Positions 312 through 18,440 of a DNA stretch of 20,000 nt are shown here, piece by piece. Below the pieces are notes generated by a model, which saw nothing but the letters and a program-made list of their open reading frames with translations, had not been told where the DNA came from and did no database searches. This DNA comes from an uncultured virus (IMG/VR IMGVR_UViG_3300043543_000740) (taxonomy: Duplodnaviria > Heunggongvirae > Uroviricota > Caudoviricetes): IMG/VR virus record IMGVR_UViG_3300043543_000740; one strand, given 5' to 3'. The position numbers and the translations under genes were made by a program. Every line of letters starts with the position of its first letter. The first letter of the stretch is position 1.

Positions 312-332
312 CGAACCCCGAGGAGCGGAACG

Positions 333-560
333 ATGAACCCGCCGAAGCCGGTGACGATCGAGTTGGAGGTGACCGAGTTCCCCACCGCCCGCGAGGCGAT
401 CGAGCACGCCCGCGCGCACGGCGGCCGGGCGATCCGGCTGGGCGGCCGGAGCCTGGTGGTCCGCGACCAGGACGCGGAGTGGTTGGCGACCGCCCGGGTG
501 GAGTTCGCGTACCTGTGCGACCACCACGGGCAGATCGTGACGGTCCCGGTCAACGATTGA
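333..560 (+). CDS. Small hypothetical protein (75 aa)
   Basis: ORF with AGGAG RBS upstream and coding-like codon usage, flanked by two hammerheads. Confidence 0.8.
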
Positions 561-561
561 A

Positions 562-621
562 GCCGAAACGCCCCCGCGGGCGTCGCGGCGGGTGGCTCCC
601 GCCGCCTGATGATGGCAGCCA
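562..621 (+). ncRNA. Type II hammerhead ribozyme with pseudoknot (copy 2), predicted cleavage after C584
   Basis: GCC-GAAA-C[GCCC ccgc GGGC]G-UC-[GCGGCGGG tggct CCCGCCGC]-CUGAUGA-t-GGC-AGCCA. Stems covary with copy 1, and loop TGGCT pairs with AGCCA. Confidence 0.9.
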
Positions 622-646
622 ACCCCATCGACCCGGAGCGACGACC

Positions 647-1075
647 ATGACCGCGAAGAAGACCACGAAGAGTTCCCCCGCCCCGAAGAAGGCCACCGGG
701 GGCAAGAAGCCGAAGGCCGCCAAGAACGCGACGCCCGCCGTCGAGGAGCCCGCGAAGACCCCGGAGGCGACCACCCCGCCGGCCGAGGCCGCGGATGCCA
801 AGCCCGCCAAGACCAGGAAGGCCCGCGCCGAGAAGCCGAAGAAGATGAGCGCCCTCGACGCCGCCGCCAAGGTCCTCGGCGAGGCGGGCAGCGCGATGAA
901 CGCCAAGGAGATGATCGAGGCGATGGCGAGCAAGGGGTACTGGACGACCCCCGGCGGGAAGACCCCGCACGCGACCCTCTACGCCGCCATCCTGCGCGAG
1001 ATCACCGCCAAGGGGAAGGAGGCCCGGTTCGCCAAGACGGAGCGTGGCAAGTTCGCCCTCAACGGGGAGGCCTGA
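647..1075 (+). CDS. HARE-HTH (HB1/ASXL/restriction endonuclease) winged-helix protein with Lys/Ala/Pro-rich N-terminal tail (142 aa), outer element
   Basis: Start MTAKKTTK after GGAG; C-terminal [10 protein letters not shown]...[33 protein letters not shown]...RF.K..RGKF pattern. Confidence 0.85.
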
Positions 1076-1083
1076 CCCCGGAC

Positions 1084-1194
1084 GCCGCCCGTTCGCCCAC
1101 GAGGCCCCCACGCGGGGCCTCTTCCCGCTTGCCGTCGTTCCGTTCAACGTGCGCCCTCCGACGCGACGTGGGCCGACGTGGGCGAACGGGCGGC
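1084..1194. repeat. Perfect 18-bp inverted repeat enclosing a hairpin, between convergent genes
   Basis: GCCGCCCGTTCGCCCACG (1084-1101) / CGTGGGCGAACGGGCGGC (1177-1194). Confidence 0.8.
1101..1121. terminator. GC-rich hairpin, possible (bidirectional) terminator
   Basis: GAGGCCCC-cacgc-GGGGCCTC between convergent stops at 1075 and 1144; only a weak U-tract. Confidence 0.45.
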
Positions 1195-1515
1195 CTCCGG
1201 GGCGAGGAACCGGACCGGCTTGCCCAGCGCGCGGGCCATCGCGATCTCCTCCCGCACCCCGATGCTCTCCCGCCACCCGTCGAGCATCAGCACCGCGACC
1301 TCGTCGCACCGCTCCAGGTGGACCCGGTCGATGCGTTCCCAATACGACCATGCGGTCGGCAACTCGAACTCGATGAGCGAGTGGCTGTGGACGATCGGCG
1401 AGAACACGACCTCGCCGGCGCGGAGCAGCGCGGCGGTCGCCCGGCAGGCGGCGCGGAACCGCTCTTCGCGGACCGCGGGGTCGGGATGCGAGTATGGACT
1501 GGCGAGGTAGATCAC
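1144..1515 (-). CDS. DUF1937 family protein (nucleoside 2-deoxyribosyltransferase-like fold), 123 aa
   Basis: IYLASPYSH...VFSPIVHSH...W.RID...L.RCD...L.LDGW.ES.GV.EEI motif; GTG start overlaps the methyltransferase stop (GTGA). Confidence 0.85.
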   Translation of the reverse strand: MIYLASPYSHPDPAVREERFRAACRATAALLRAGEVVFSPIVHSHSLIEFELPTAWSYWERIDRVHLERCDEVAVLMLDGWRESIGVREEIAMARALGKPVRFLAPEAARSPTSAHVASEGAR

Positions 1516-1875
1516 GCGGACACCTCCGCGCCGGTCCGCTCGGCCTTGCGGCCGGTGAACTTCTCCCACCGCTGGACGATGACGTCGCAGTACAGCGGGT
1601 CCAACTCCATCAGGTACGCCTTCCGTCCGGTCTGCTCGGCGGCGATGAGCGTGCTGCCGGAGCCGCCGAACAAGTCGAGAACATGCTCACCCTCGCGGGA
1701 CGAGTACTGCATCGCCCGCACGGCCAACTCGACCGGCTTCTCGGTGAGATGCACCATCGACTGCGGGTTGACCTTCTTCACGCTCCACACGTCCGTGGCG
1801 TTGTTCGGCCCGAGGTAGACGTGCGCCGCGCCCTCGCGCCAGCCGTAGAAGCACCACTCGTGGTTGCCCATGAAG
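1512..1875 (-). CDS. C-terminal half of the interrupted ParB-DNA methyltransferase. It is in frame with the serine recombinase ORF and has a possible independent start ATG at 1871
   Basis: FMGNHEWCFYGW...HLTEKPVEL...VLDLFGGSGSTLIAAE.TGR..YLMELDP.YCDVI (motif I SAM-binding and downstream motifs of beta-class N4/N6 MTases). Confidence 0.92.
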
Positions 1876-3623
1876 TCCCCTCCGGGTAGCCGTGTGGAGC
1901 CATCGGCGAACGCACGCTCCAGGCCCGCGTGTAGGTAGACTGTGCCCGTCTTGTCGTCGGGGTTGACCTCGATCTTCTCGACGAACGCGGCGAGCATCTG
2001 CCGGTCCGCGAGGTCGATGTCCGTCCGCGTCGCCAGGGCGTCGAGTTTGGCGAACTGCTCCATCGCCCAGGCCCGCAGATCGGCCTCGGTGATGATCGGT
2101 GTGGCAGGTTCATCGGTGGGCTTCAAGCGGGCCTCCAGCACGTCGCGCTTGGCCTTCAGGTCGGCCAGGGTGGTCCGCAGTTCGTCCAGACCGTCGAACG
2201 TCGGGTCGGCCAGCATCGACACGGTCGCCTTGATCTTGCGGTTCAGCAGGTCGAGCTCGCGCTCGTCGCCCCGCGTCGGCTTGGCCTTCGCTCGCGGGGC
2301 CAGCACCGCTTTGACGAACGCATCGACCGCCTTCTCGACCGTGGCGTGGTCGCCCAGCAGCACCTTCCGCACAGCATCCAGCACGAACCGGTCGAGGGCC
2401 GGGCCGGGGACGTTCACCACCCGGCAGACCGTCTTGCCGTAGCGGTGGTAGCCCGAGCAGGCGTAGACGCGATAGCCCTCGCCGGTCGGGCCGGGCCAGC
2501 GGCGGTCGCGGATCGTGGTGAACGGGTTGCCACACCGCTTGCACACCAGCAGGCCAGCCAGCAGGGTGCGTTTGGTCGGCCGGGCGTTGCCGTGCTCGGC
2601 CCGCCGCTTGGCCACGGCCCGCTGGGCGGCCGCCCAGGTATCCTTGCTGACCAACGCCTCGTGAACGTCCTCGCTGATGATCCAGTCGGCCTCGGTGTTG
2701 CGCTGCCACATCTTCTTCCGCTTCGGCTTCAGCACGCCCTGGCCGTCGAGGCCGAACAGGCTGCCCATCGTGTGGCGGTTCCAGACGACCGCCCCGCGAT
2801 AGACCGGGTTGCGGATCAGCTTGGCGATGCGGGCCGTGTTCCACTTCTGCCCGCCGGGCGACGGGATGCCCTCGGCGTTGAACGTCTGCGCGATGTGGTG
2901 GAAGCCGTAGCCCTGCACGCACAGGTCGAACATCCGCTTCACCACCGCTACCCGCTCGGGCAGGCTCGGGACGTAGCGGATGATGTCGCTCTTGGCCTTC
3001 TTCAGGTTGACGCCCACCGGGACCACTCGCAGCAGTCGGCCATCCGGCCCGAACTCCTGCTTACTACCGTCGGGCATCCACCGCAGCGTGCGGAGCAGTT
3101 GCCCGTCGCCGGTCAAGTGCTGCTTGTCGTAGCCGTACGGGGCCATGCCGCCGGGCGCGGACTTGCGTTCGCGGATGTTCGAGATCTGGCCCCGGATGCT
3201 GTCGCGGGCGAGCTTGACCGAGTACTGGCGGGCCTGCCAGGATTTGACGCCCTGGATCAGTTCGCCCTCGTCGCCCTCGGGGATGCCGTCGGCAGTGAAG
3301 ACCACGCCGACGCCGGCCAGGTGCAGGCGGTGCAGGTAGAAGCCGGTCTCGTTGGTGCCGCCCCGCGAGAAGCGGGAGATGTCGTAGCACAGCACCGCCT
3401 CGAAGTCGCGGCCGTTCTCGGCGGCCTTCATCATCTGCTCGAAGGCGTCGCGGCCGCGGGCACTGGTGCCGGACACCGCGTCGTCGATGTACCAGCGCAG
3501 CACGCGGTAGCCGTGCTCGGCCGCCCAGCGTTCGACGGCGGCCTGCTGGTCGGGGATCGAGCGTTCCTGCATGTCGGTGCTGCGGCGCGCGTAGCCGACG
3601 GCCGGGATCAAGGTCTTGGTCAT
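1512..3623 (-). CDS. Large serine recombinase (integrase). In the integrated state it reads through the att site into the 120-aa MTase C-terminus (703 aa total)
   Basis: AVGYARRST catalytic motif, YDISRFSR, APYGY, IRNPVYRG, HEALVS, zinc ribbon LLAGLLVCKRCG...YAC...C and coiled coil; GGAG RBS before ATG 3623. Confidence 0.95.
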   Translation of the reverse strand: MTKTLIPAVGYARRSTDMQERSIPDQQAAVERWAAEHGYRVLRWYIDDAVSGTSARGRDAFEQMMKAAENGRDFEAVLCYDISRFSRGGTNETGFYLHRLHLAGVGVVFTADGIPEGDEGELIQGVKSWQARQYSVKLARDSIRGQISNIRERKSAPGGMAPYGYDKQHLTGDGQLLRTLRWMPDGSKQEFGPDGRLLRVVPVGVNLKKAKSDIIRYVPSLPERVAVVKRMFDLCVQGYGFHHIAQTFNAEGIPSPGGQKWNTARIAKLIRNPVYRGAVVWNRHTMGSLFGLDGQGVLKPKRKKMWQRNTEADWIISEDVHEALVSKDTWAAAQRAVAKRRAEHGNARPTKRTLLAGLLVCKRCGNPFTTIRDRRWPGPTGEGYRVYACSGYHRYGKTVCRVVNVPGPALDRFVLDAVRKVLLGDHATVEKAVDAFVKAVLAPRAKAKPTRGDERELDLLNRKIKATVSMLADPTFDGLDELRTTLADLKAKRDVLEARLKPTDEPATPIITEADLRAWAMEQFAKLDALATRTDIDLADRQMLAAFVEKIEVNPDDKTGTVYLHAGLERAFADGSTRLPGGDFMGNHEWCFYGWREGAAHVYLGPNNATDVWSVKKVNPQSMVHLTEKPVELAVRAMQYSSREGEHVLDLFGGSGSTLIAAEQTGRKAYLMELDPLYCDVIVQRWEKFTGRKAERTGAEVSA
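1876..1898. other. att junction at the integrase end (crossover TC/GA 1876-1877; attP arm 1884-1898)
   Basis: GGGTAGCCGTGTGGA (1884-1898) is the exact reverse complement of TCCACACGGCTACCC (12471-12485); each arm is 6 nt from the shared dinucleotide. Confidence 0.92.
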
Positions 3624-3648
3624 GGGTTCGTCTCCGGGTTGCGCACCG

Positions 3649-3670
3649 ACGCCCCGCATGGGCGGGGCGT
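3649..3670. promoter_or_regulatory. Hairpin between the HARE-HTH and integrase genes (possible attenuator/terminator)
   Basis: ACGCCCCGC-atgg-GCGGGGCGT, perfect 9-bp stem, no U-tract. Confidence 0.45.
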
Positions 3671-3689
3671 GGCGGCGGGTTGTTTGGAA

Positions 3690-3989
3690 TCAGGCCAGCG
3701 TGAACCGGCCGCGGGCGACCTTGTGGAACTTGGCATCCTTGCCCTTGGCCCGGATCTGTCGCAGTAGGGAGGCGTACAGGGTCGCGGCCGGGGTCTTGCC
3801 CGCCGGGCTGCTCCAGAGCCCCTTGGCCATCATCGCCTCGACCATCTCACCGCAGGTCATCGGCTCGCCGGCGTCGGCCAGGACGCGCTCGGCGGCGGCG
3901 ATCTGGCTCAGCTTCTCGGCCGGGGCCGGTTGCGGTTCAGGCTTCTTCTTCGGGGCTGCCTTCTTCTTCGTGGTCGTCTTCGTCGCCAT
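3690..3989 (-). CDS. HARE-HTH winged-helix protein of the inner element (99 aa), homologous to 647..1075
   Basis: LSQIAAAERVLADAGEPMTCGEMVEAMMAKGLWSSPAGKTPAATLYASLLRQI...KF.K..RGRF; GGAG RBS. Confidence 0.88.
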   Translation of the reverse strand: MATKTTTKKKAAPKKKPEPQPAPAEKLSQIAAAERVLADAGEPMTCGEMVEAMMAKGLWSSPAGKTPAATLYASLLRQIRAKGKDAKFHKVARGRFTLA

Positions 3990-4320
3990 CGTGGTTCTCC
4001 CGCATCGGGTCGTCGTGGTCGCGGGGCGACGATCCCTCCGCGTCAGGACAGTCAGTTACAAGCCGGTTCGCCCCGGTTCCAGCGACTTCCGGCCCGATTC
4101 CGGGAGATTCTTCCGGGGCCAGCAGGTGCTTCCGACCCGCCCGGATGTCGGCCTCGAGTTGTTTGAAGAACCGCCACTCCCACAACGGCACCAGCACCAC
4201 GTCCGCCTTGCCGTAGCGGGTGATGACGACCGGCTCGTCGGTGCGGGCGACGTGCAGGCAGACCATGCCCAGCCCGTCGCGCAGCAGCGACACCGCCATC
4301 TTGTGCTCGGTCGGCTTCAT
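3937..4320 (-). CDS. Phd/YefM antitoxin-like DNA-binding protein (no adjacent toxin seen)
   Basis: ...SLLRDGL...VARTDEPVVITRYGKADVVLVP.WEW matches the Phd/YefM pattern; AAGGA RBS; the C-terminal tail is poorly supported and overlaps the next gene. Confidence 0.7.
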   Translation of the reverse strand: MKPTEHKMAVSLLRDGLGMVCLHVARTDEPVVITRYGKADVVLVPLWEWRFFKQLEADIRAGRKHLLAPEESPGIGPEVAGTGANRLVTDCPDAEGSSPRDHDDPMRENHDGDEDDHEEEGSPEEEA

Positions 4321-4405
4321 GGTTCCTTTCCGGGTTTGGCTCCCCGCGATGAGGTCGGGCGGAACAGGCACGGGGAACAAGACACACATCTTGTGACCAA
4401 CAAAA

Positions 4406-4498
4406 TCCGGACCTGTACAAGAAGGAAACTGTGCTTACCCCGGTCGGTGTTCCGCGTGCCAATTTTTCTTTTCGATCCGGCCGGGAAGGAACCATTGG
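4406..4498 (-). promoter_or_regulatory. Putative packaging (cos/pac-like) signal of the inner element
   Basis: Minus strand CCAAT-GGTTCCT-T-CCCGGCCG-N24-GGAACA-N14-CACAGTTT...GTCCGGA; same blocks and N24/N14 spacing as 13659-13746. Confidence 0.6.
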
Positions 4499-4556
4499 CC
4501 AGTTGTTGCGTGTGCAACACCTGATCCATTTGAATCACCCGGTCCGGCGGGTTGTC

Positions 4557-4746
4557 TTCCACACGGCTACCCCGCGACCTCTCATCGTGCCGCGCGTGCT
4601 TGTGCGCGCTTCCTATACCCGCCCCCCGGGGTGCGTTCACGCACCCACGGGGGGTATAAGGGGGGTGCGCGCACACACACACAGACACCCGAGGCGGGTC
4701 AGCAAGACGCCGGGAGGAAGTTTCCACACGGCTACCCCGCGACCTC
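4557..4746. repeat. Two 25-bp direct repeats containing the attP arm, flanking a nested palindrome (putative origin of replication)
   Basis: TTCCACACGGCTACCCCGCGACCTC at 4557-4581 and 4722-4746. Nested inverted repeats: TGTGCGCGC/GCGCGCACA (4601-4609/4667-4675), TATACCC/GGGTATA (4614-4620/4652-4658), GGGTGCG-ttca-CGCACCC (4629-4646). Confidence 0.85.
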
Positions 4747-4759
4747 ATGAACGCGGTCA

Positions 4760-6349
4760 TCACTCATCCTCCGGCTGGGGTCGCGTGGCGAACTGGACCG
4801 GCTGGTTGGCTCCGAACTTCCAGCGGTGGACGAGCCCGGCGGCCTCGGCCTGCTTGAGCAGCTTCTTGGCCAGCGGTTCGGGCACATCCGCCTCCGTGGC
4901 CCGGTGGACGATGCGCGCCGTCATGGCGGGCGTCTTGGTCACGAACGCCGCCACGAACGAAGGGACGGTCCACTCCGGCTTCGACGGCTTGGCCGGCTCG
5001 GGCTGCGGGGTCGGCTTCGGCTTGCGGCGGAGCTTCTCGGACTTGAGGTCGGACGGGTCGAGCGCGTCCTCGACGGTCCAGACCGGGAACGACCAGCGCA
5101 GACACCTGGGTTCGATCGGCGGCCACGAGCGGACGGCGGCGTCGAGGACGGCCACTCCGGGCTCCTCGTGCGGACGCAGGACGAGGTGCGTGTCCGCCGC
5201 ACGCGACTGCGCCCCGGCCCCCGCGCCGACATCCGTGACCGCCTTGCCCGACTGGTTCCCCTTGGTGCTGTGGTGGATCAGCACGAACGCGCACTGCAAC
5301 TTCGCGGCATAGGCGTCCAGCACGTTGTACACCTGGGCCATCGTGCCGTTGTCGTTCTCGTCCGTGTCCCTCGGCATCGCCCGGTAGAAGGCGTCGATCA
5401 CGACTAGCTTGTACCTGCCCGGCTCGATCCGGCTGAAGCACGGCCCCAGGCCGAAGATGTCTTTCAGCTTGCCACGCAGGTTCACGATGTCGATGCGGTC
5501 GCCGCACTCGGCGAGCGTGATGCCGCGGGCCTCCATGACCTTCGGGATGCGGCCGGCCGACGTTTCCTTGTGCAACTCGTTGTCGATGAGCAGCACCCGG
5601 CCCTGTTCGCACGGGAACAGATCGAGCCACGGGCGGCCGGTCGCCACGGCCAGGGCGAGGTCGCTCACCAGCCAGGACTTGCCGACCTTGGGCGAAGCGA
5701 TGACGTTCAGCGTCTCGCCTTCGCGGAGCAGCCCATGCACGACCGGCGGTCGCAGGTGCGGATACCGCATGACGAGTTCGCGGAGCGACTGGATGGGAAA
5801 CTCGTCCGGCTCCGACTTGGCGGGTGTCGGCACCGGCTTGGTCCCGGTGCGAAGCCACTCCAAGTTGCCGGGCTTCTTGGTGAGCGGTGCCGGCTCGGGT
5901 TCCGGCGGTTCGTCCCAATCGTCGTCGGGACGGGGTGGTTCGGTGGGTTGGTCGAAGTCGATCGGCTCGGCCGCCCAGCGTTCGACTCGAGTGAGCCAGC
6001 GTTCCAGTTCCACGCCGAAGTCGCGCTCCTCGGCATCGGGGTTGAACCACGCCTGCTCGACGAACGCCAGCGCGTGATGCCGACCGCGCAGTTGAGCCGC
6101 CAGAACCTCGTGGCCCGGCGTGTACCACTCCGCGCCGTCACGCTCGACCCGCGCGTTCTCCCGGGCGATCTGCCGCTGCTCCTCGACGAACTGGATCACC
6201 TCGATGTCCGGCCGGAGCCACTGCGACGCCTCGCGGGCACCGAGGAGAAATCCCTCCCGATAGGCATGCTCGGCCTGCTCCCGATGCGGATGGCCCTCGG
6301 GCAGCACGGAATCGCCGTAGTAGGGCACCATTTCAGTTGCGTTCGACAC
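4760..6349 (-). CDS. AAA_25/RepA-like (SF4-type) replicative helicase with unknown N-terminal region and probable C-terminal winged helix (529 aa)
   Basis: Walker A ASPKVGKS, VLLIDNE, Walker B LVVIDA, LIHHSTK, GAGAQSRAAD; GTG start at 6349 with GGAGGT RBS. Confidence 0.88.
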   Translation of the reverse strand: MSNATEMVPYYGDSVLPEGHPHREQAEHAYREGFLLGAREASQWLRPDIEVIQFVEEQRQIARENARVERDGAEWYTPGHEVLAAQLRGRHHALAFVEQAWFNPDAEERDFGVELERWLTRVERWAAEPIDFDQPTEPPRPDDDWDEPPEPEPAPLTKKPGNLEWLRTGTKPVPTPAKSEPDEFPIQSLRELVMRYPHLRPPVVHGLLREGETLNVIASPKVGKSWLVSDLALAVATGRPWLDLFPCEQGRVLLIDNELHKETSAGRIPKVMEARGITLAECGDRIDIVNLRGKLKDIFGLGPCFSRIEPGRYKLVVIDAFYRAMPRDTDENDNGTMAQVYNVLDAYAAKLQCAFVLIHHSTKGNQSGKAVTDVGAGAGAQSRAADTHLVLRPHEEPGVAVLDAAVRSWPPIEPRCLRWSFPVWTVEDALDPSDLKSEKLRRKPKPTPQPEPAKPSKPEWTVPSFVAAFVTKTPAMTARIVHRATEADVPEPLAKKLLKQAEAAGLVHRWKFGANQPVQFATRPQPEDE

Positions 6350-6503
6350 GTTGCACCTCCTCCCGGCCGCGGAGCCACTGGGCCAGGAGCCATGCCGCCA
6401 ACGCCTCGGCGCGCCGCTCGACGCGGGCCTGGGCCTCGGGCGCGGGGTCGCTGAACGCCACGGTGAACGTGAACGAGCCGATCTGCGGGTTGGTGTCGGA
6501 CAT
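6333..6503 (-). CDS. Small hypothetical protein, 56 aa (MSDTNPQIGSFTFTVAFSDPAPEAQARVERRAEALAAWLLAQWLRGREEVQRVERN); absent from the ORF track
   Basis: AGGAG RBS, coding-like codon usage, stop overlaps the helicase start region. Confidence 0.65.
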   Translation of the reverse strand: MSDTNPQIGSFTFTVAFSDPAPEAQARVERRAEALAAWLLAQWLRGREEVQRVERN

Positions 6504-6637
6504 GGCCCCTCTCCTGTGCCGGTCCTGCCGAGGCAGGGATGAACCCCACGGCGGGGTTCGGCGACGGCTTGCCGGGTCGGCAAGTCGCGTTCGCCAGAGG
6601 CGAAGAGGGTCGGTCGATAGGTTGTGTCAGTGGGCTG

Positions 6638-8479
6638 TCAGTTCTCCCCTTTGGCCTTGTACGCGGCCCGGTGGTCGGCCAGCGCGGCCCCGTAGTCGAA
6701 GTAGACCCGCCAGGACACGGCCAGCTTATTCGGCTCCGCATCCATGCCGAAGAACTCGACGTTCGGCGACTGAACACCTTGCAGGAAGGCGACGATCAGC
6801 GGGGTGTCGGCCGGCCCGGCGAACAGGTACCACGCCTTCGCCGAGGTGCCGCTGAACCGCCCCGCGTTCGACAGTCGCGGCTCCACTTCCAGCGTCACGG
6901 CGTTCTTGAGGGCGTTGCCGGTGGGCACGTCGTTGTTGGCCCGCTGCAGAAAGTCGCTCATGAGCAACTCCTTGGCGGTCTGCTGCAACTCCGGCGGCAC
7001 CAGCAGCACGCGCGGCCGGATGTCCAGATCGCGGCCCTCGCCGTCGCGCTGGCTCATCATCTTGGCGATGCCCGCCCCCAGCGACGCGCTGGACAACGCC
7101 GTGGCCGTCCCGGTGTCGTAGTTGGCGTGGCCGCCGCTGAAGAAGTTCCCGGCGTTGGCCAGCAGCACCTGGTACACGAGGTCGCTCAAGGACCGCATCG
7201 CCGCCCGGCCGAGGTTCCGGGCCGTCTCGTCGAACAACGATAAATCGTCGTTCACAACATCCCTGCGGTCGATGCTGAGCATCTTGGCGAAGGTGTCGAT
7301 GCGGAACGGGTAGGTCATCTCCTTGATGGAGCCGTGCTTGATCTCGCCGCCGGGGGCCAGCTGGGTGAGGTCCCCCACGTCACTACCCCGCACCCCGGTG
7401 TGCGGCTTGAAGTCCGTCGCCGACTTGATGCCCGCGAACGACCGCCACGTCGCCGGCGTCTCGGTGTAGGCGTCCATCAGCAGCTTGTTGGCCGCGTCAC
7501 CCAACGCCACCGGCAGTGAGTAGGTGGACAGCGCGGCGCGGATCAGGGCGTCCCGGCTGCTGGGAATGTCCCGGCCGTCGAGTTGCAACGCCGCCCGGCA
7601 CAGGTCGATCAGGTTCGTGGCCCGGAGGTCGCGGGCCTGCTGGGCTGCCGTGGCCCCGAGGTGCCGTTCGGCGAGGTGTTCGTAGCCCATGTGGCTCAGC
7701 ACCGCCGCCTCCAGCGTCTGTCGGGTCGTGGTGAACGTCCGGCTGTGGATCGTCGTCACCTGCGGCCGGCTGGCACGCAGGACTTCGAGCCGCGTGCGGC
7801 GGACATCCCAGCCTTCCACGATGGCGCGGGCCTCGATGTCGCCGAACTGCCCGCCGCACGCGGTGCGGATGGCGTGGACCCGCTCCGTCTCGGCCAGGGC
7901 CGCCGCTCGGATGTCATCGGCCGTCTGCGTCTCGTTCATGGTGCTCTCCTTCCCTTGGGCCGCGATGGCGACCGACGTGTTCGCATCGGCCCCGATGGCG
8001 ACGATGCTCACCTCCCGCAGCACGCCGGCCTTGACCAGCGTGAACCCACTCCGTCCGGCGGTGATCGCCCGGCCGTTCACCTGCACGGATTCGCCGCCAC
8101 GAACCCGCTCGTAATCGGTAGGCATCACGCCGACCGATGCTTGGAACTTGAACCCGCCCCGAGCGAGTTCAACCACCTGCCGGGCCGCCTCGGTCACGCC
8201 GGTAAGCGTGCCGTGGACGAGCAGCTTGCCGTCGATCACCTGCGCGCGGCCGTGCCCGACGATGCCGTCGAGTGTGGCGTCGTGGTCCGCCAAGAGGCTG
8301 ATCTGCTCGGCTCCGGCATCAAGCCCCGCGAGGTCGATGGCAACCGGCCCCCAGCCCGGCACCGTCATCAGCCCGCCCGTGTACGCCACGATGGAAACGC
8401 TCGGCGGTTTGCCGGACGCGGCTTGAATCTCGACCTCGGCGGATGACAGCAGGATTTCTTGAGACGCAGTGGAACGCAT
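6638..8479 (-). CDS. Prohead protease-major capsid protein fusion (HK97 fold, Mu gpT-like), 613 aa
   Basis: N-terminal protease motifs LLADHD..IVG, FQASVG, LREVSIVAIGAD; capsid motifs ANKLLMDAY....TW, DFK, GGEIKHG, TFAKMLSIDRRDVVNDDL, PRVLLVPPEL, AWYL, V.FDYGA..DHR. Confidence 0.88.
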   Translation of the reverse strand: MRSTASQEILLSSAEVEIQAASGKPPSVSIVAYTGGLMTVPGWGPVAIDLAGLDAGAEQISLLADHDATLDGIVGHGRAQVIDGKLLVHGTLTGVTEAARQVVELARGGFKFQASVGVMPTDYERVRGGESVQVNGRAITAGRSGFTLVKAGVLREVSIVAIGADANTSVAIAAQGKESTMNETQTADDIRAAALAETERVHAIRTACGGQFGDIEARAIVEGWDVRRTRLEVLRASRPQVTTIHSRTFTTTRQTLEAAVLSHMGYEHLAERHLGATAAQQARDLRATNLIDLCRAALQLDGRDIPSSRDALIRAALSTYSLPVALGDAANKLLMDAYTETPATWRSFAGIKSATDFKPHTGVRGSDVGDLTQLAPGGEIKHGSIKEMTYPFRIDTFAKMLSIDRRDVVNDDLSLFDETARNLGRAAMRSLSDLVYQVLLANAGNFFSGGHANYDTGTATALSSASLGAGIAKMMSQRDGEGRDLDIRPRVLLVPPELQQTAKELLMSDFLQRANNDVPTGNALKNAVTLEVEPRLSNAGRFSGTSAKAWYLFAGPADTPLIVAFLQGVQSPNVEFFGMDAEPNKLAVSWRVYFDYGAALADHRAAYKAKGEN

Positions 8480-8673
8480 GAGGTGACCGACCTCCCCGGA
8501 ACGACGGAACGGAAGCAACCGGTCGGGCACGGTGCCCGCCGGTCGAGGGGTGGTTGGATGGGTGGGTCGTTGGGTTGGGTCGGTCGGTCGATGGGTTCGT
8601 TCGGGTCGTCAGGGTGGGAAGGTTTGCTCCCGGTCCTTGGCCGTCATGGCGCGACCGTTCCCCGACTGGAAGA

Positions 8674-8702
8674 ATTGTAGCGGATGTACACCTTGACGAC
8701 AA
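8674..8702 (-). promoter_or_regulatory. Sigma70-like promoter for the capsid-helicase operon
   Basis: Minus strand TTGTCG-N17-TACAAT in the AT-richer divergent intergenic region. Confidence 0.6.
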
Positions 8703-8770
8703 GCCCGGGAGATGATTTTCTTTCGTATAACAATGTTCTCATCGAGAAAGGCATCCCGAGAGTACTTGCC

Positions 8771-11700
8771 ATGCGTCGTTCCCTATCGTCCTGGGCCAAG
8801 AGCATCTTCCCGACCGCCCCGACTCGGCCGATCCGTAAGCCTCGTTCCTTGACCCTGGAACAGTTGGAAACGCGCGACTGCCCGACCGTCCTGCCGCCGG
8901 GCGGCCCCGAACCGCAGCCGCCCGGCCCCGGCTTCCCGCCGGTAGCCAACCCGGACCACTTCGCCTTCGCTCCCGACGCGCCGATCCGCATCAGCGTCGC
9001 CGACCTGCTGGCCAACGACACGGCCGCGCCCGGCGTGCCGCTGACGGTCGAACTGCTCGATAGCCCCGCCGGCGGGCAACTCGACCTGATCGACGTGGGC
9101 CTGTGGGAGTACACGCCCGGCACCGGTTTCAGCGGCAGCGACGCTTTCAGCTACCGCCTCTTCGACGGCACCGATTACAGCCTGCCCGCCCTCGTGACCT
9201 TCGAGCAGCAGCCCACCCCGCCAAGCACACCAGCCACACCCACCGTCACCGACGTGACCGAGGCGTGGCTGACCGGCTTCGAGGATGAGGCCCTCGGCAG
9301 TGTCACCGTCGCGGTGTTCGAGACGGCCGAGGCGGACGTGCTCGACTGGACCGCCAGCATCGACTGGGGCGACGGCACCACAACCACCGGGCAGATCGTG
9401 GCCGACGGCGACGGCCGGTTTCGCGTCGTGGGCGAACACACCTACGACGCGTGGGGCCTGTACCTCGTGCAGGTCACGCTGACCGACACGGTCGAGGAGA
9501 CGCACGACCTCTACAACCTGGCGAGCATCCAGTTCCGCAACTACACTTACACGTTTACCGACCCGATCGGCAACAGCACGCAGTTCGTCTTCGCCGAGGG
9601 CTGGCAACTCACGCAGGAGATCGACCCGCTCGGGAATTCGACCTTCTACAGCTACACCACCGACGGCCTGCTCGCCAGCCGCACCGACCGGCTGGGCCGG
9701 GCCATCACCTTCGACTACGGCACCGACGGCGTGCTCCTGAGCCAGACGTGGCTGGCCGCCGACCTGACCACCGTGGTGGACACGCTGTCGTTCAGCTACA
9801 CCAGCGACGGCCTTTTGCTCAGTGCGAGCAACGGCGTCGGGGCGTACACATTCAGTTGGGCCGACGGGGTGCTGACCGGCGTGACCAACCCGTTCGGGGT
9901 GACGCTGACGTTCGGCTACGACACCGACGGCCGACGGACCTCGGTGGCCGACTCGTTCGGCGGGCTGATCACCTCGACCTACACCGACGGCCTGCTCAGC
10001 AGCCGGACGCTCGTGGCCGGGGCGTTGAACCTGCGGGTCGATCTGGGCTACGACGCCGACGGGGTGCCGACCCAGATCAGCCGGTTCGCCGGGCCGCTGC
10101 AGGAGTTGGTGTCGCAGACGGAGTACGCCTTCGCGCAGGGCTTGCTCGCCTCGATCACGCATCGCGGCGCGGGCGGGGTGATCCTCGACCAGTTCCTCTA
10201 CCAGTTCGACGAGGACGGCTTCCTCTCGCAGATCACCTCCGACTTCGTGGGCGAGACCGACTACGCCTACGACGCCGACGGGCAGTTGACCGGCGAATCG
10301 TCAATCTTGGTGTCCAGCACGTTCAGCTACGACGCCAACGGGAACCGGGTGGGCGGCGGGTACGTCGTCGGGCCGGGCAACCGCCTGCTGGCCGACGGCA
10401 CGTGGAGCTACAGCTACGACGCCGAGGGGAACCTCGTCGGCAAGACGCACCTCGTGACCGGCGATAGTTGGACCTACAGCTACGACCACCGCAACCAGAT
10501 GACCCTGGCCGAGAAGCGTGACGCGAGCGGGTCGGTGGTGCTCTACGCAGTCTACAAGTACGACGTGTTCGGCAACCGCATCGAGAAGGCGGTGGACTGG
10601 GACGGTGATGGACCAAACACGCCAGTCATGACGCGGTACGTGCTTGACGGCTGGAACAACATGAAGCCGACGCCGGTCGGCAACGAGCACTTCGACGTGT
10701 ACGCCGAGTTGGACGGCACGAATCAGTTGATCGCCCGGTATCTGCACGGCGACGAGTTCGACCAGACGTTCGCGCGGGTGTTGGTGGACGGCAGCACGCC
10801 CGAGGTCCACTGGCTGTTGGCCGACCACCTGAACTCGGTGCGTTTGGTGCTGGACGAGAGCGGCGCGGTACTCGACCAGATCGCCTATGATGCCTTCGGC
10901 AATATCGTGGCGCAGCTGAACCCGCTGCTCGTTAACCCGATCCTGTTCGCCTCGCGCGAGTTCGACGCCGAGACGGGCCTCTACTACAACCGCGCCCGCT
11001 ACCTCGACCCCACCACCGGCTGCTGGACCACGCAAGACCCGCTCGGCTTCGCCGCCGGCGACGCCAACCTCTATCGCTACCTGAACAACAGCCCGACCCT
11101 TGCCACCGACCCGAGTGGCTTGATCTGGTATCCGGGGAAGTATCTGTACCAGATGTACAGCGAATACCGACGGGGTCAGGAACTGGATCGCCAGATTAAC
11201 CAGCATCGTGCCACGCAAAACTTACCGCCACTCCCGCCGCCGCCTCACTGGGCACGAGTGGCTGTCACGGAGTTTGGTGATGGTCTGCGGATCGGGTTTC
11301 AAGCCAACGTGAATGCGGTAGCGACGGCCGGACGTTCGTTGGTCACCTTGGGTATCTGGGCCGAGCCGTGGGAAGTGTGGGCAGTGGATGACGTCGATCG
11401 GCCGTTCTACGAGGATGGGTTTTTGGCTGCACGCTTCGGCTGGGAGTTGCTGCCGACGGCGGGGATTGGCAAGCTGACGCAAGTGCCGGGTCAGATGGGT
11501 CGCTGGGGCCGGTACGCTCTGTACTGGGACGCTGGCCAGAATGTTGTCCAGGTCGGTCGGGGTGGTTATGATATCTACGAAAACGGCCTGACCTGGACGA
11601 ATGGCCTGCAAGTCGGCGGCCTGCTCGGACTGGGCGGCAACTACACCACTTGGCGGAGGCTGCCGAGTGTAGCTCCAGCAGGTAAGGGGGGAAGAGGGGA

Positions 11701-11980
11701 CATCATGCGGATGGCCCCGTCTGATGCCCCTCGGTCTGCCGCCGAGGCCGCCTTGCGACGGGAAGCAGAATTGCGACAGCGAATCCTGGCAGATCGTCTT
11801 GCTGAGTTAGGTCACGGTGAGGGTGGTGCTGTCGGAAAGGGAGCGACCCGCCTTCCTCCTGAAGCAGCGAATGATCCCACGGCCCGAGGTATGTGGGAAG
11901 AGTTGCAAAGGATTCGTCGCCAGATTGCTGACCTTCGCCGTAACCCGCCTTCTGGCCCCCGTGAAATGCTGGAACCTTGA
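8771..11980 (+). CDS. Rhs/YD-repeat polymorphic toxin with planctomycete export motif, Ig/cadherin-like domains, short Rhs cage and an unknown ~285-aa C-terminal domain (1069 aa)
   Basis: LTLEQLETRDCP; PVANPD..LLAND..YTP..F.G.D.F.Y; IDWGDG...HTY; YD repeats; Rhs core GLYYNRARYLDP..G.W...DPLG...NLYRY..NSP....DPSGL. Confidence 0.92.
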   Translation: MRRSLSSWAKSIFPTAPTRPIRKPRSLTLEQLETRDCPTVLPPGGPEPQPPGPGFPPVANPDHFAFAPDAPIRISVADLLANDTAAPGVPLTVELLDSPAGGQLDLIDVGLWEYTPGTGFSGSDAFSYRLFDGTDYSLPALVTFEQQPTPPSTPATPTVTDVTEAWLTGFEDEALGSVTVAVFETAEADVLDWTASIDWGDGTTTTGQIVADGDGRFRVVGEHTYDAWGLYLVQVTLTDTVEETHDLYNLASIQFRNYTYTFTDPIGNSTQFVFAEGWQLTQEIDPLGNSTFYSYTTDGLLASRTDRLGRAITFDYGTDGVLLSQTWLAADLTTVVDTLSFSYTSDGLLLSASNGVGAYTFSWADGVLTGVTNPFGVTLTFGYDTDGRRTSVADSFGGLITSTYTDGLLSSRTLVAGALNLRVDLGYDADGVPTQISRFAGPLQELVSQTEYAFAQGLLASITHRGAGGVILDQFLYQFDEDGFLSQITSDFVGETDYAYDADGQLTGESSILVSSTFSYDANGNRVGGGYVVGPGNRLLADGTWSYSYDAEGNLVGKTHLVTGDSWTYSYDHRNQMTLAEKRDASGSVVLYAVYKYDVFGNRIEKAVDWDGDGPNTPVMTRYVLDGWNNMKPTPVGNEHFDVYAELDGTNQLIARYLHGDEFDQTFARVLVDGSTPEVHWLLADHLNSVRLVLDESGAVLDQIAYDAFGNIVAQLNPLLVNPILFASREFDAETGLYYNRARYLDPTTGCWTTQDPLGFAAGDANLYRYLNNSPTLATDPSGLIWYPGKYLYQMYSEYRRGQELDRQINQHRATQNLPPLPPPPHWARVAVTEFGDGLRIGFQANVNAVATAGRSLVTLGIWAEPWEVWAVDDVDRPFYEDGFLAARFGWELLPTAGIGKLTQVPGQMGRWGRYALYWDAGQNVVQVGRGGYDIYENGLTWTNGLQVGGLLGLGGNYTTWRRLPSVAPAGKGGRGDIMRMAPSDAPRSAAEAALRREAELRQRILADRLAELGHGEGGAVGKGATRLPPEAANDPTARGMWEELQRIRRQIADLRRNPPSGPREMLEP

Positions 11981-11988
11981 GGAAGATC

Positions 11989-12321
11989 ATGATGGAAAGA
12001 AAGAACGGTCGAATCGTCGGCGGCTCTTTCGATGAGCTTGTGGCGATGCTATCTTCGTCCAATCACTTCGACCGGGCTGAGGCGGCCAGGCTGCTCGTCA
12101 ACATGCGGAAGGAGGCCATCAAGGCATTACCCGCACTTCTGGCTCTGCACAATGACCCCTGTGATCTGGTTCGCATTCAAGTACCCCGTGCGATTATTCA
12201 CATGGAAGCTCGCCCTGATGAGGCTGCTGAGGTTCTACGCTGCCTTTTGAATGACAAGAACAAGATCGTCAGGCTGTATGCTGAAGAAGCGCAGCAGTTT
12301 CTCACCCAGCGAACGTCATAG
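11989..12321 (+). CDS. HEAT-repeat protein, probable Rhs immunity protein (110 aa)
   Basis: Directly follows the toxin; RAEAARLL / ALPALLALHNDP.DLVR / LLND.NKIVR..A HEAT-like repeats; lower GC. Confidence 0.75.
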   Translation: MMERKNGRIVGGSFDELVAMLSSSNHFDRAEAARLLVNMRKEAIKALPALLALHNDPCDLVRIQVPRAIIHMEARPDEAAEVLRCLLNDKNKIVRLYAEEAQQFLTQRTS

Positions 12322-12427
12322 CTCTTTGTGTGCTGCTCGTCCCGAAGTACGCCGCCGCCTTTTCACCCCCCGGAGTCCCAATCAAGAACACAGGCCGGGG
12401 TAGCTACCAGCCTAGCCTGAAAAATGT

Positions 12428-13438
12428 TCACATCCACACGTTTCCCCGTTCCCACTCGAACCCGACCCGTTCCACACGGCTACCCCGTGAATCCTTGCGG
12501 GTGAGCACCGGGTGCTCCTTCACCCAGATGATCGCCTGCGAAAAGTACAACTCGCAGGCCTTCAGCACCGGCGGGTAGTTGGCGCAGTTGGCGTAGCCGC
12601 CCCAGATGTAGAAGCCGCGGCCGGGCTCCAGCACGCGGGCGAGGTTCCCGAACCACGCGGCCAAGAGCCGGTCGAACTCGGCGTCGGAGACGAAGTCGTT
12701 GGCGAGCGGCCGGTCCTTGGCGCGGAGCTTCTTCCCCGTCGGTTTGGCCTTCTCGGGGTGGCGCTCGACGTCGAGCTTCTGGTGGTGGGTGGTGCCGGCG
12801 AACGAGGAGAGGCCGGCGGCGATGGCGTTGTTGGAACGCGGCTCGACCTTCACGTTGTACGGCGGGTCGGTGTTCACCAGGTGGATGCCCGCGCCGCCGA
12901 GCAACCGGTCCACGTCCGCCGGCTTGCTGCTGTCGCCGCACAGGAGGCGGTGGTCGCCCAGCACCCACAGGTCGCCCGGTTTGGTCGTCGCCTCGTCCGG
13001 CGGTTCGGGCACCTCGTCCGGGTCGGTCAACCCGTCCTTCAGGGTCGGGTCGAGCAGCTTCGCCAGCTCGTCCGCGTCGAAGCCGAGGAGCGCGAGGTCG
13101 TAGTTGGCCTCCTTCAGCCCGGCCAGTTCGATCGGGAGCAGGTCGTAGTCCCACGTCGCCAGCGACGCCGTCTGGTTGTCGGCGATCCGGTAGGCGCGGA
13201 TCTGCTCGGGGGTCAGGTCCGTGGCGACGTGGACCGGCACCTTCTCCAGGCCCAGCTTCAGTGCCGCCTTGTAGCGCGTGTGGCCGACGACGATGACGCC
13301 CTCGGCATCGACGACGATCGGCTGGCGGAACCCGAACTCGCGGAGCGACGCCGCGACCGCATCGACCGCGTCGGCGTTATCCCGCGGGTTGCCGGGGTAC
13401 GGCTTCACGTCGGTGATCTTCCAGAGTTCGATCTTCAC
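12428..13438 (-). CDS. N-terminal part of the ParB-N + DNA (N4-C/N6-A, beta class) methyltransferase, truncated by the element and ending in a 20-aa element-derived tail
   Basis: PYPGNPR..N, FGFRQPIVVD, GHTR..AA, YRIADN (ParB-like); W.LG.HRLLCGDS; TDPPYNV (motif IV); IIWVKE...TRKD; GTG start at 13438 with GGAGG RBS. Confidence 0.93.
   Translation of the reverse strand: MKIELWKITDVKPYPGNPRDNADAVDAVAASLREFGFRQPIVVDAEGVIVVGHTRYKAALKLGLEKVPVHVATDLTPEQIRAYRIADNQTASLATWDYDLLPIELAGLKEANYDLALLGFDADELAKLLDPTLKDGLTDPDEVPEPPDEATTKPGDLWVLGDHRLLCGDSSKPADVDRLLGGAGIHLVNTDPPYNVKVEPRSNNAIAAGLSSFAGTTHHQKLDVERHPEKAKPTGKKLRAKDRPLANDFVSDAEFDRLLAAWFGNLARVLEPGRGFYIWGGYANCANYPPVLKACELYFSQAIIWVKEHPVLTRKDSRGSRVERVGFEWERGNVWM
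12471..12493. other. att junction at the Rhs end (attP arm 12471-12485; crossover TC/GA 12492-12493)
   Basis: TCCACACGGCTACCC-CGTGAA-TC-CTTGCGGGTGAG; methyltransferase homology stops exactly here. Confidence 0.92.
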
Positions 13439-13746: not shown

Positions 13747-13865
13747 ACCGATCGACCTTCGGGGCGTAGCGGCATCGGCCACGCCGATGTTCGGATCTCA
13801 CCACGAACCAGAAACGATGGATCGGCACCTCCAACACGATGAAGAACAAGAAGAGAATCCGAGGG

Positions 13866-14005
13866 GGAGGTAGTTCGTAGTTTTTGGTAGCCACCCTTTC
13901 TCTCCTCCAGCGCCGATCGCGCACACACGAGGTGGGTGCGAAAAACGACGAACTACCTCCTTCACGCGGAGACAAGGCGGGTACGAAAAACTACGAACTA
14001 CCTCC
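13866..14005. repeat. Three 20-bp iteron-like repeats (two direct, one inverted), putative origin of the outer element
   Basis: AAAAAC(T/G)ACGAACTACCTCC at 13941-13960 and 13986-14005; exact reverse complement of the latter at 13866-13885; at the 3' end of the primase gene. Confidence 0.8.
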
Positions 14006-16096
14006 CGCGACCGCCGTCGCCACGTAGCGCACCCCGGGTGCCCCACCCTGGCGGCCGGATGGCTGGGTCACCTCGCGGATGTCGCCGCACGCGACCAGGG
14101 CTTCGAGAATCTCGGCGCGTTCGCGGTTGGTGAACGCCCGCGTCTTGCCGTAGAGGTCGGAGCGGGTGATGCCGTGTTCGCCGGCGTCCGCCACCAGCCG
14201 GAGGACGCGCTTGCGGCGCGCGTCGAAGGGGTTCTCCGCGACCCAGCGGCCGGCGAGGAAGACCAGCCGTCGGGTCAGGTAGCGGCTGAGGTCGCACGCC
14301 CAGGTCGCGGCCGGCTCGTCGATGGCGGGGTTGCGGGCGTCGCGGCTGCACGCGTACAGCAAGGCCAACTTGCGGGCCTTCTCGGTCGCCCGCGTCCAGA
14401 GCGAGCCGAGCGGCTCGCCCAGGTCGCGCTGGGCCGCGTCCGCTTCCGCGTCCAGCGCGTCGAAGATGCCTTCTGCGGCCGTCGTTGCCGCAATCACGAC
14501 CGGCTCGGGGTGCTCCTGGTTCAGGTTGCCCGACGGGTTGAACTCGGCCCAGTACTTCGCGGCACCGATCACGCCCTGCGGGATCGGCAGCCGCGCCGGC
14601 TTGCGTTTGGGCGGCAGCTCTTGAGCACACTCGAAGATCATGACCCGCGACAGGAAGCCGTCGGTGACGTTCTCGGCGGTGAACCCCTCGTAGAGCGACT
14701 GCGGCACGGTGGTCCCCCAGAGGCACGCGTGCGGCTGGTGGATGACCTTGTTCCGCTTGGCGTCCGCGTAGGCGTCGCCGAGGTAGACCGACGCCGAGCT
14801 GGTGAACAGCTTCATCAGGTTGGTCGCGATGTGGTACAGGTGCGGCGACCGACCCGGGTCCGCCAGCGTGCGCAGGAGACGCCCCACCTCGTCGAGTTGG
14901 AACAGGATCGCCGGCTGCTGCTCGACGGCGGTAATGAGGCCCGCGTGCGACGCCAGCCCCTCGGGACCGGCGAGCTTCTCCGCGCCGGCGAGGAAGAGGA
15001 TCTCCTTGTTGACCAGGCGGGCGCGTTCCTTGCCGCCGCCGGTCGGGCAGACGCCGAGGCAGTAGACGTTGGTGCGGGTATCGACCTCGTCGCGGACCTT
15101 GCGGCCGGTCAGCGTGCCCAAGAGCGCGAGTGCACCGGCCAGTGCCAGGACCGGCTGCCGGCGGAAGGCGGTGGCCAGGGTGTAATCCGTGACCTCGCCG
15201 ACGAAGCCGGGGACGGCCAGAAGCGCTCCTGGGAACGGCCCCGGATCGGGCGGGCCGGCCGCGGCCGTGGGACACTGGAACGTCTGGTCGTAGTGGTTCT
15301 CGACCAGCGCGACCGACACTTCGTCGGGGCGGTAGCGGGCGACGCTCTCCGCGATCCGGTCCACTTCGCGTTCGGCCAGCGGCGGAACGCAGCGGACGCG
15401 GTTGGTCTGGTGCAAGGCGGCCGCGATCTCCACCCGGCCCATTCCGACGCGGCGCATGGTGCCGGCGAGTTTCGCCAGGGTCGCGTTGCGTTGGCCGGAC
15501 GGGATCGGGTTGGCGTCCGGTACGCCCTGGCCCGCCGTCGGCGAACGTGGGGCCAACGGGGGCGTTCCTGTGGCCAAACGGTCGAGTTGGGCGACGAGCC
15601 ACGGCGGCGGTTCGGGCAACTGCTCCAGGCGGTCGTCGAGTTCGAGCGTGTCGGCCCAGCGGTACGGCCCTTCTTTGATCTCGGACGGCGGGGCCACGAT
15701 GTAGCCGCCGTCGGTGCGGACATCGACGCCGCAGGCGAGCTGGCCCGTCGAACACTTCCAGTTCTTGTCCGCGAGCCGCCGGAACAGGTAGTGCCGGCCG
15801 CCTCTTGGCGTCTGCGCGACCGCCCCGGCACCGGCCAGATCAGCGGCACGTTCGGGATCGCCGGGCCAGGGGTTGTCCGCTCCATCGATGTCAACGACGA
15901 GCATCCCCTCGGCCGCGATGCCGATGTTCGCGGTCGGGTGCCTCGACCACCACTTCTCGATCTGCGCGGCGTCGGTCGAGGCATCATGGAAACCGTGTTC
16001 AGTCACCGGCTTCTTGCTGCCGGGCCAACATGGGAACACGCGATAGCCAAGCTCGGCGTAGCGCAGTGCGGCGGTCAGCAGTTCGCCGGGTGTCAC
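13991..16096 (-). CDS. Bifunctional DNA primase/polymerase (Prim-Pol) + PriCT-1 + DUF3987-like helicase-type domain (~701 aa)
   Basis: ALRYA..G..VFP, NIGI, VVDID, QTPRGGRHYLF, DVRTDGGYIVAPPS; G.RNATL...AG..PPL.EREV..IA.S; P-loop-like CPTGGGKE, LDEVG; GTGA overlap with the helicase stop. Confidence 0.88.
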   Translation of the reverse strand: MTPGELLTAALRYAELGYRVFPCWPGSKKPVTEHGFHDASTDAAQIEKWWSRHPTANIGIAAEGMLVVDIDGADNPWPGDPERAADLAGAGAVAQTPRGGRHYLFRRLADKNWKCSTGQLACGVDVRTDGGYIVAPPSEIKEGPYRWADTLELDDRLEQLPEPPPWLVAQLDRLATGTPPLAPRSPTAGQGVPDANPIPSGQRNATLAKLAGTMRRVGMGRVEIAAALHQTNRVRCVPPLAEREVDRIAESVARYRPDEVSVALVENHYDQTFQCPTAAAGPPDPGPFPGALLAVPGFVGEVTDYTLATAFRRQPVLALAGALALLGTLTGRKVRDEVDTRTNVYCLGVCPTGGGKERARLVNKEILFLAGAEKLAGPEGLASHAGLITAVEQQPAILFQLDEVGRLLRTLADPGRSPHLYHIATNLMKLFTSSASVYLGDAYADAKRNKVIHQPHACLWGTTVPQSLYEGFTAENVTDGFLSRVMIFECAQELPPKRKPARLPIPQGVIGAAKYWAEFNPSGNLNQEHPEPVVIAATTAAEGIFDALDAEADAAQRDLGEPLGSLWTRATEKARKLALLYACSRDARNPAIDEPAATWACDLSRYLTRRLVFLAGRWVAENPFDARRKRVLRLVADAGEHGITRSDLYGKTRAFTNRERAEILEALVACGDIREVTQPSGRQGGAPGVRYVATAVAGGSS

Positions 16097-17781: not shown

Positions 17782-17787
17782 GGCTCT

Positions 17788-18363: not shown

Positions 18364-18440
18364 GGGGTGACTCGTGAGGAATGGTGGCGGCCACGGCCCG
18401 GCGCGGGGGCACCGGGTGAACGTGCGTCAGGGGACTGCGA

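Follow-up and report, generated by a model that had tools for sequence, protein, structure and literature searches.

A serine-recombinase element of Planctomycetota with its attachment site inside its recombinase gene, probably a helper-embedded satellite, splits a prophage methyltransferase gene

In a 20,000-nucleotide stretch of DNA from an uncultured virus of the Caudoviricetes (IMG/VR record IMGVR_UViG_3300043543_000740; this whole stretch is called the window below), two pieces of one DNA methyltransferase gene lie on either side of a 10.6-kb block that carries a gene for a large serine recombinase (LSR). How did the gene come to be split, what kind of element lies between its halves, and can the split be undone? 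We consider it likely that a member of a family of integrative elements entered the methyltransferase gene of a prophage by LSR-mediated recombination between the element's site, attP, and the target site, attB. This element, whose attP is located in the LSR gene, is most likely a satellite embedded in a helper prophage.

Joining window positions 13438..12492 (947 nt) to 1875..1512 (364 nt) on the minus strand gives a 1311-nt open reading frame (ORF) that encodes 436 amino acids and has a single, terminal stop codon. The N-terminal half matches the Pfam family ParB_N and positions 1-86 of the N6_N4_Mtase profile, and the C-terminal half matches positions 139-220 of that profile. The whole is a beta-class N6/N4 DNA methyltransferase with a ParB-N domain, in which DPPY (motif IV) comes before FxGxG (motif I), and these motifs are on one polypeptide only after joining. 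Solved relatives are RsrI, MboIIA and CcrM. Given that the catalytic DPPY half is apart from the FGGSG half, which binds S-adenosylmethionine, neither piece should methylate DNA alone. In the integrated state, the N-terminal half continues into element sequence and reaches a stop codon at 12428.

The uninterrupted gene occurs in nature. A protein search with the N-terminal half retrieved P0002, a protein of 436 amino acids that is identical to the joined product at 436/436 residues. It is encoded on a viral record of 49,536 nt, G002, in which the joined ORF is present at 1311/1311 bases. An initial annotation of this DNA, made from its letters without database searches, had claimed that the joined ORF is uninterrupted and that neither half is damaged, and the empty-site allele of G002 agrees with both claims to the base. 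The same annotation offered a recent insertion as one possibility, which is supported by the 0 differences in these 1311 nt.

The surrounding DNA leads to the same picture. Window positions 1-1890 and 12484-20000 match neighbouring segments of G002, with 99.79% and 99.96% identity (blastn). Since the flanks are contiguous in G002 and the joined ORF is exact there, the window is a G002-type phage with a scarless 10,616-bp insert at 1876..12491. The integration is within a prophage gene, as the flanks constitute a phage replication module, and the methyltransferase gene sits in this replication operon of the helper, on the same strand. G002 carries the same replication module, the same DUF1937 and HARE-HTH genes and, farther along, its own protease-capsid gene.

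Homologs of the methyltransferase also fit the reconstruction. Among the 120 homologs listed, 116 are contiguous across the junction, with motif I downstream, and two are cut or frameshifted beyond a contiguous junction. The remaining two end in an element-derived tail; they are the window's own product and P0016, which comes from a second element. The initial annotation had proposed aligning the joined protein to intact homologs, and had stated beforehand that extra or missing residues at the junction would count against it. None occur among these 120.

The junctions resemble LSR attachment sites. A non-palindromic GA is common to attL (the junction with the methyltransferase N-terminal half), attR (the LSR-side junction) and the empty site, and attB is only partially identical to the arms. 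The two 15-bp arms are 100% complementary, and each is 6 bp away from its TC/GA dinucleotide. The attP that had been reconstructed earlier, a perfect 15-bp inverted repeat centred on GA, agrees with this, and the reconstructed sites also match the natural empty site and natural attP-type junctions in relatives. Short sites with dyad arms, a 2-bp non-palindromic crossover and no long block of identity support an assignment to the LSR type. The attB is roughly 50 bp long and is located in the most conserved stretch of the methyltransferase gene (...LTRKD/FMGNHEW..., where the slash marks the junction). The LSR would recombine the element's attP with this attB, with the crossover predicted at GA. 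Recombination in the opposite direction at this dinucleotide would rebuild the 436-amino-acid enzyme exactly.

The arm sequence is not limited to the ends. Its 15-mer is present four times in the window without a mismatch, at the two ends and at 4558-4572 and 4723-4737, while shuffled versions of the window would be expected to give about 0.135 matches with at most two mismatches. The internal pair belongs to perfect 25-nt direct repeats, whose position is kept in five relatives (L026, L039, L044, L015 and L045). These copies are putative LSR-binding sites away from the ends, and may serve, for example, to regulate the element's own operon.

The attachment site proved to be part of the recombinase gene itself. 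The LSR matches PF00239 (3.5e-24), PF07508 (5.7e-27) and PF13408 (4e-13) in Pfam as well as the integrase family phrog_95 (3.1e-96), and its closest solved relative is the SPbeta integrase (E 1e-11). Its ORF has no stop codon inside the element and runs in frame to position 1512, which gives a product of 715 amino acids. Read across the circular junction, the product has 615 amino acids and ends in a 20-residue tail, SRGSRVERVGFEWERGNVWM. The same 20 residues terminate the truncated methyltransferase, P0001, in the integrated state. Thus, the final ~20 codons of the LSR gene contain attP. In the integrated form, a tail-less LSR is fused in frame to the 120-amino-acid C-terminal half of the methyltransferase, and the tail has moved onto the truncated methyltransferase. 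Integration would therefore exchange the C-terminus of the recombinase. The initial annotation overlooked both the position of attP inside the LSR coding sequence and the 715-amino-acid run into the methyltransferase. An attP inside an LSR gene is new here; literature word searches, which had incomplete coverage and do not prove absence, found no description of one.

The tail appears to be coding and conserved. Pairwise differences among 13 elements are concentrated at third codon positions (195 at position 1, 162 at position 2 and 363 at position 3), and database LSRs of 603-609 amino acids, e.g. P0134 and P0136, end in the same tail. Fusions to the methyltransferase account for 22 of the 120 LSR homologs listed.

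One further observation concerns the end of the fused frame. The TGA stop codon of the methyltransferase overlaps the GTG that opens the DUF1937 frame (GTGA; window 1512-1569). In the integrated state, translation of the fusion of LSR and methyltransferase C-terminal half would stop at this overlap, and translational coupling is possible.

What the tail might do is suggested by a structure prediction. We modelled the natural attP-form LSR of the relative L023 using AlphaFold2 with a 46-row alignment (mean predicted local distance difference test score, pLDDT, 78.5). In the model, long helices (450-553), predicted to form a coiled coil, follow the zinc-ribbon strands and precede the last beta hairpin. 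A disordered linker (598-608) is followed by strands at 610-618 and 621-623, with pLDDT ~76-79. A nine-residue strand modelled at this level would imply a sheet to pair with, for which the last hairpin of the zinc-ribbon domain is the simplest choice. According to PMC12286644, directionality factors bind at the junction of the zinc-ribbon domain and the coiled coil, most of them add a strand to the sheet of this domain, and SCCmec recombinases have extra C-terminal strands that could block the factor's site. Engineered C-terminal fusions of an integrase to its factor perform attL x attR recombination (PMC5737554). By analogy with these cases, a state-dependent role of the tail is plausible. 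A more specific proposal, which we think unlikely, is that the tail docks on the second DNA-binding domain at the factor's site. The state of integration would then determine whether the LSR integrates or excises, so that this LSR clade would encode its own directionality switch, and the internal arms could allow the LSR to regulate its own operon.

LSR searches yielded 55 related loci, and the 3′ end of the LSR gene is covered in 42. According to record titles, the relatives belong to Gemmataceae, Frigoriglobus, Pirellulales, Thermoguttaceae and other Planctomycetota bins. In 20 of the 42 loci, the LSR frame stays open across the junction at the methyltransferase site used in the window (D/[FYM]MG...). 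Two loci, identical in sequence, use a second position ~24 residues downstream in this gene. In three (L011, L012 and L052), the read-through target is the nuclease domain of terminase gpA, and in L052 the terminase is split at LVVLD/DPQ with both halves present. Four loci have an attP-type junction at the LSR end, and the remaining 13 have another outcome. On the side of the methyltransferase N-terminal half, ...AA(G/A)-GA followed by a conserved element arm is found in ten loci and in the window.

The in-frame sites of the same orientation are the two methyltransferase sites, the terminase, an esterase gene and an ORF with a Tat signal. L047 and L048 are antisense, L053 is out of frame, and at least five sites are ambiguous. 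We do not claim a bias toward in-frame read-through, as in-frame cases are easier to classify, and the pattern is only suggestive. Taken together, the targets indicate that the family repeatedly uses conserved stretches in genes of one phage type. This phage type has its own related protease-capsid gene, which is 35-39% identical.

Two loci show other events at the methyltransferase. L054:11732-12910 (P0131, 974 amino acids, in a Thermoguttaceae bin) has an intein, with an Intein_splicing match, in the methyltransferase C-terminal half right past ...FMGAHEWC. The LSR crossover is only a few residues away, so one conserved stretch is used by two different selfish elements. In L024:1576-2811, an internal part of the LSR (window 3213-2270) is joined to the methyltransferase N-terminal half (window 12752-12442), so this contig is rearranged or chimeric.

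Evidence of movement comes from one relative whose element is 75% identical to that of the window. In L021, the element lies beside a methyltransferase N-terminal half, and L022 is an attP-type permuted contig. L022 (10,448 nt) corresponds to L021 1078-11314 at 99.98% identity, followed by L021 762-976 at 100%. Its LSR (right) end is thus joined to its own left end, and the contig is nearly one full circle, which is the expected attP product. Since one relative is seen in both forms, the LSR element family appears to be mobile. In L023, the LSR end is joined to a left end with 92% identity to window 12443-12494, and the right arm matches that of the window over the stretch compared. The L022 and L023 forms could be circles, concatemers or tandems.

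We also considered L015 as a free form, but rejected it. Its element interrupts, in frame, a short ORF that carries a Tat signal (MKNFSVARRRF...), and the attP-like junction is a hybrid with a second element. At L015:1-260 and 11290-11345, the LSR end directly meets the degenerate left arm of a different element, which looks like a tandem or nested array.

The gene content of the element bears on its lifestyle. Read on the minus strand from the junction with the methyltransferase N-terminal half, the genes encode HEAT-repeat and RHS-repeat proteins (these two on the plus strand), a protease-capsid fusion, an AAA_25 protein, a Phd-like protein, a HARE-HTH protein and the LSR. Relatives, where covered, keep this order: cargo that varies comes first, frequently with a sigma-70-like gene, and is followed by protease-capsid, AAA_25, Phd in some of them, HARE-HTH and LSR. 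Where the window has RHS and HEAT, the cargo elsewhere is DUF1254/DUF1214 accompanied by a SpoIIAA-like protein, or else a tyrosine integrase or TadE/VWA protein. The element genes are intact across relatives at 50-94% identity, and the HARE-HTH gene is directly upstream of the LSR gene in every relative that covers this region. The element's protease-capsid fusion is 35% identical to the helper's own version, and a helper phage protein contains a HARE-HTH domain with 55% identity to the element's HARE-HTH protein.

The element thus has modules for integration, regulation, replication and a capsid, but no portal, terminase or tail genes were recognised in it. Eight full-size elements, in each of which the two ends could be placed, span 10,176-11,167 bp. 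Modules without portal, terminase or tail genes, a conserved size of 10.2-11.2 kb and targets in phage methyltransferase and terminase genes together make it most likely that the element is a satellite living within its helper prophage. We propose that a 10.6-kb integrative element of this Planctomycetota family has inserted into the ParB-N/beta-class methyltransferase gene of a prophage. Upon induction of the helper it would excise and replicate, and it would be packaged using its own capsid protein and the remaining parts of the helper.

Several observations weigh against this scheme. The element lacks recognisable packaging genes, and calling it a satellite is a reading of its gene content and location. 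No directionality factor was identified in it, and a complex prediction of LSR residues 230-590 with the HARE-HTH protein, as a putative factor, did not establish one. The sequence to the right of the LSR end in L021 (11313-11546) is not the methyltransferase C-terminal half, which could reflect a rearrangement, a second insertion or an assembly problem. Junctions of the attP type also arise in tandem arrays, such as L015, and do not prove free circles. Terminal overlaps, which would indicate circular contigs, are absent from L015, L020, L022, L023, L035, L053 and L055. An exact 46-nt attP word from L023 has 0 matches in viral contigs. Neither a skip from 1875 to 12492 nor the back-joint was seen in the Logan contigs of four runs, among the matches listed. 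Finally, there are relatives that seem to be fixed and in decay, namely L061, with a stop codon in the methyltransferase C-terminal half, and L033, a 5.1-kb remnant. The initial annotation had raised the possibility of a reversible switch. Reversibility is supported at the level of the family by the L021/L022 pair, but not for the copy in the window, whose excision product was not seen among the matches listed for the Logan contigs of the four runs or with the exact attP word in viral contigs.

The Logan contigs of X2, X4 and X7 span the flanks of the phage and very little of the insert. One loose end in X4, at 1878, looks like an intact but diverged methyltransferase.

Could the split serve the helper? 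The element might be kept because its timed excision on helper induction delays or gates methylation of helper DNA, as with skin in sigK, SPbeta in spsM, and the helper-embedded phage-inducible chromosomal islands (HE-PICIs). We regard such a regulatory role as possible but doubtful. It would fit the intactness of both methyltransferase halves and their place in the helper replication operon on the same strand. The C-terminal half is open in frame in 19 of the 20 loci with the first methyltransferase site (three of them only to the contig end), L061 being the exception. HE-PICIs are also reported to delay expression of the helper gene they interrupt (PMC10111431). However, with zero divergence from the empty-site allele, intactness could merely reflect recency. 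Moreover, relatives hit unrelated targets (terminase, esterase gene, Tat-signal ORF), so the choice of target looks opportunistic towards conserved sequence. A simpler reading than control of methylation is that the site was chosen because the helper gene is conserved, and this stretch of it very much so.

The opposite idea, a one-way dead end, strikes us as quite improbable. Here, a recent landing would have inactivated the methyltransferase, and the element could not leave, having lost the LSR tail and lacking a directionality factor. The failure to find such a factor, the integrated LSR without its conserved C-terminus and the decayed relatives L033 and L061 are all in line with this idea. 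By contrast, the same element occurs in integrated and attP-type forms (L021/L022), all element genes have stayed intact across the relatives, and element-free phage is present in other metagenomes examined. An assembly artefact that joined two unrelated contigs inside a conserved gene is highly improbable: although the assembly behind the window is of metagenome type, and although G001, the nearest genome, has nothing of window 1-14000 beyond a weak similarity to the capsid, both junctions recur with the same dinucleotide in at least eight loci from independent assemblies, and related truncated and fused proteins are found in public protein sets. A satellite that entered the helper gene by LSR recombination is thus the explanation we prefer, and Table 1 lists the corresponding features.

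Table 1. Positions in the window of the split gene, the inserted element, its attachment sites and the neighbouring helper genes
Feature	Position	Strand	Remarks
Inserted element	1876..12491	.	10,616 bp, one copy of the crossover dinucleotide counted; from blastn against G002 and the exact join
Methyltransferase, N-terminal half	12492..13438	-	GTG start, ParB_N domain, DPPY motif, ends ...LTRKD
Methyltransferase, C-terminal half	1512..1875	-	FMGNHEW... FGGSG ... stop
Crossover dinucleotide, attR (LSR-side junction)	1876-1877	-	GA on minus strand
Crossover dinucleotide, attL (methyltransferase-N junction)	12492-12493	-	GA on minus strand
15-bp att arm	1884-1898	.	inverted partner of 12471-12485
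15-bp att arm	12471-12485	.	100% complementary to 1884-1898
Internal att-arm copy 1	4557-4581	+	25-nt repeat containing the 15-mer
Internal att-arm copy 2	4722-4746	+	between the AAA_25 and Phd genes, 165 bp away from copy 1
LSR	1876..3659	-	Resolvase, Recombinase, Zn_ribbon_recom; likely start is the second Met, near 3623
LSR C-terminal tail segment (SRGSRVERVGFEWERGNVWM)	12428..12491	-	stop 12428-12430; joined to LSR only in attP form
HARE-HTH protein	3690..3989	-	99 amino acids; directly upstream of LSR
Phd/YefM-like small protein	3937..4389	-	acidic tail; E 2e-05, below Pfam cut-off; kept in relatives
AAA_25 / primase-helicase-like replication protein	4760..6583	-	start codon uncertain
Head maturation protease and major capsid fusion	6638..8530	-	phrog_4523, Phage_capsid_4
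RHS-repeat protein (cargo)	8684..11980	+	C-terminal domain without family match
HEAT-repeat protein	11977..12321	+	overlaps RHS stop
Terminator-like hairpin	12391..12414	-	just past the tail stop; consensus match only
Helper HARE-HTH gene	479-1075	+	downstream of methyltransferase, ~0.5 kb beyond it
Helper DUF1937 gene	1144-1569	-	downstream of methyltransferase; within 479..1569
Helper replication module	13991..19848	-	upstream of methyltransferase; AAA_24, DUF669, RusA, helicase, Prim-Pol

We now note properties of some features in this table. The RHS protein has cadherin/Big_9-like N-terminal domains. Together with the small HEAT ORF it resembles a polymorphic toxin with its immunity gene, where HEAT would be the candidate immunity protein. 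Four relatives have a sigma-70/ECF-like gene upstream of the capsid gene (L022:3166-3717, L031:4773-5342, L054:4659-5210 and L015:3248-3787), directly so in three of the four. In the window, the divergent RHS gene occupies this position. The hairpin past the tail stop was rejected as a terminator, because the four sites of this kind that we found compare with 7.3 expected in shuffles and are not significant.

The exchange of a recombinase C-terminus has parallels in other systems. In SSV1-type archaeal integrases, which are tyrosine recombinases that target tRNA genes, attP is also inside the integrase gene, and integration cuts the integrase ORF. There, the int gene is split into two large pieces, whereas the window element exchanges only the last ~20 codons. 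In the integration-dependent immunity of mycobacteriophages, which involves a tyrosine integrase and a degradation tag, attP is inside the repressor gene. In both this system and ours, integration alters the C-terminus of an element protein and couples the properties of this protein to the integration state, but the affected protein is the repressor there and the LSR here.

Engineered fusions of integrases with recombination directionality factors (PMC5737554) and SCCmec LSRs (PMC12286644) resemble our case in that the enzyme tolerates C-terminal additions, which can fix directionality or block it in cis. Those extensions are engineered or fixed. By contrast, recombination itself exchanges the predicted beta-strand C-terminus here. 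This exchanged and probably structured tail offers a testable handle on how directionality might be set without, or together with, a separate factor. In addition, a natural LSR whose attB, attP, attL and attR are defined to the base, with many independent integrations and an empty site, is ready material for recombinase tools.

In their effect on the target, the closest parallels are skin (SpoIVCA, sigK), SPbeta (SprA/SprB, spsM) and gin/gerE. In these systems (PMC5499854 and PMC5595907), too, an LSR element splits a gene precisely and excision rebuilds the frame. They involve host sporulation genes, defined directionality factors and developmental triggers, while the window element interrupts a prophage gene.

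In lifestyle, the element is most like the HE-PICIs of Tommasini, Mageeney and Williams (2023), which, according to PMC10111431, have only tyrosine integrases, are found in Proteobacteria and enter late genes at 14 sites. Both are satellite-like islands of ~11 kb inside a helper-prophage gene, and in both an integrase clade repeatedly targets prophage genes. They also share ordered zones for integration, regulation, replication and late functions, and a capsid gene homologous to that of the helper (PMC10111431). The window element differs in using an LSR, in its Planctomycetota hosts and in having attP inside the recombinase gene, and its integrase is outside the clade by which HE-PICIs are defined. 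Its target is a methyltransferase gene of the replication module and not a late gene, although the relatives L011, L012 and L052 do target terminase. We found no LSR satellites in Planctomycetes in literature word searches, whose coverage was incomplete. The window element thus works like a HE-PICI without being a member of that clade, where the likeness in mobilisation and packaging is drawn by analogy. Its family, whose recombinase gene spans its own attachment site, would extend the helper-embedded satellite lifestyle from the tyrosine-integrase islands of Proteobacteria to LSR elements of Planctomycetota that are probably satellites.

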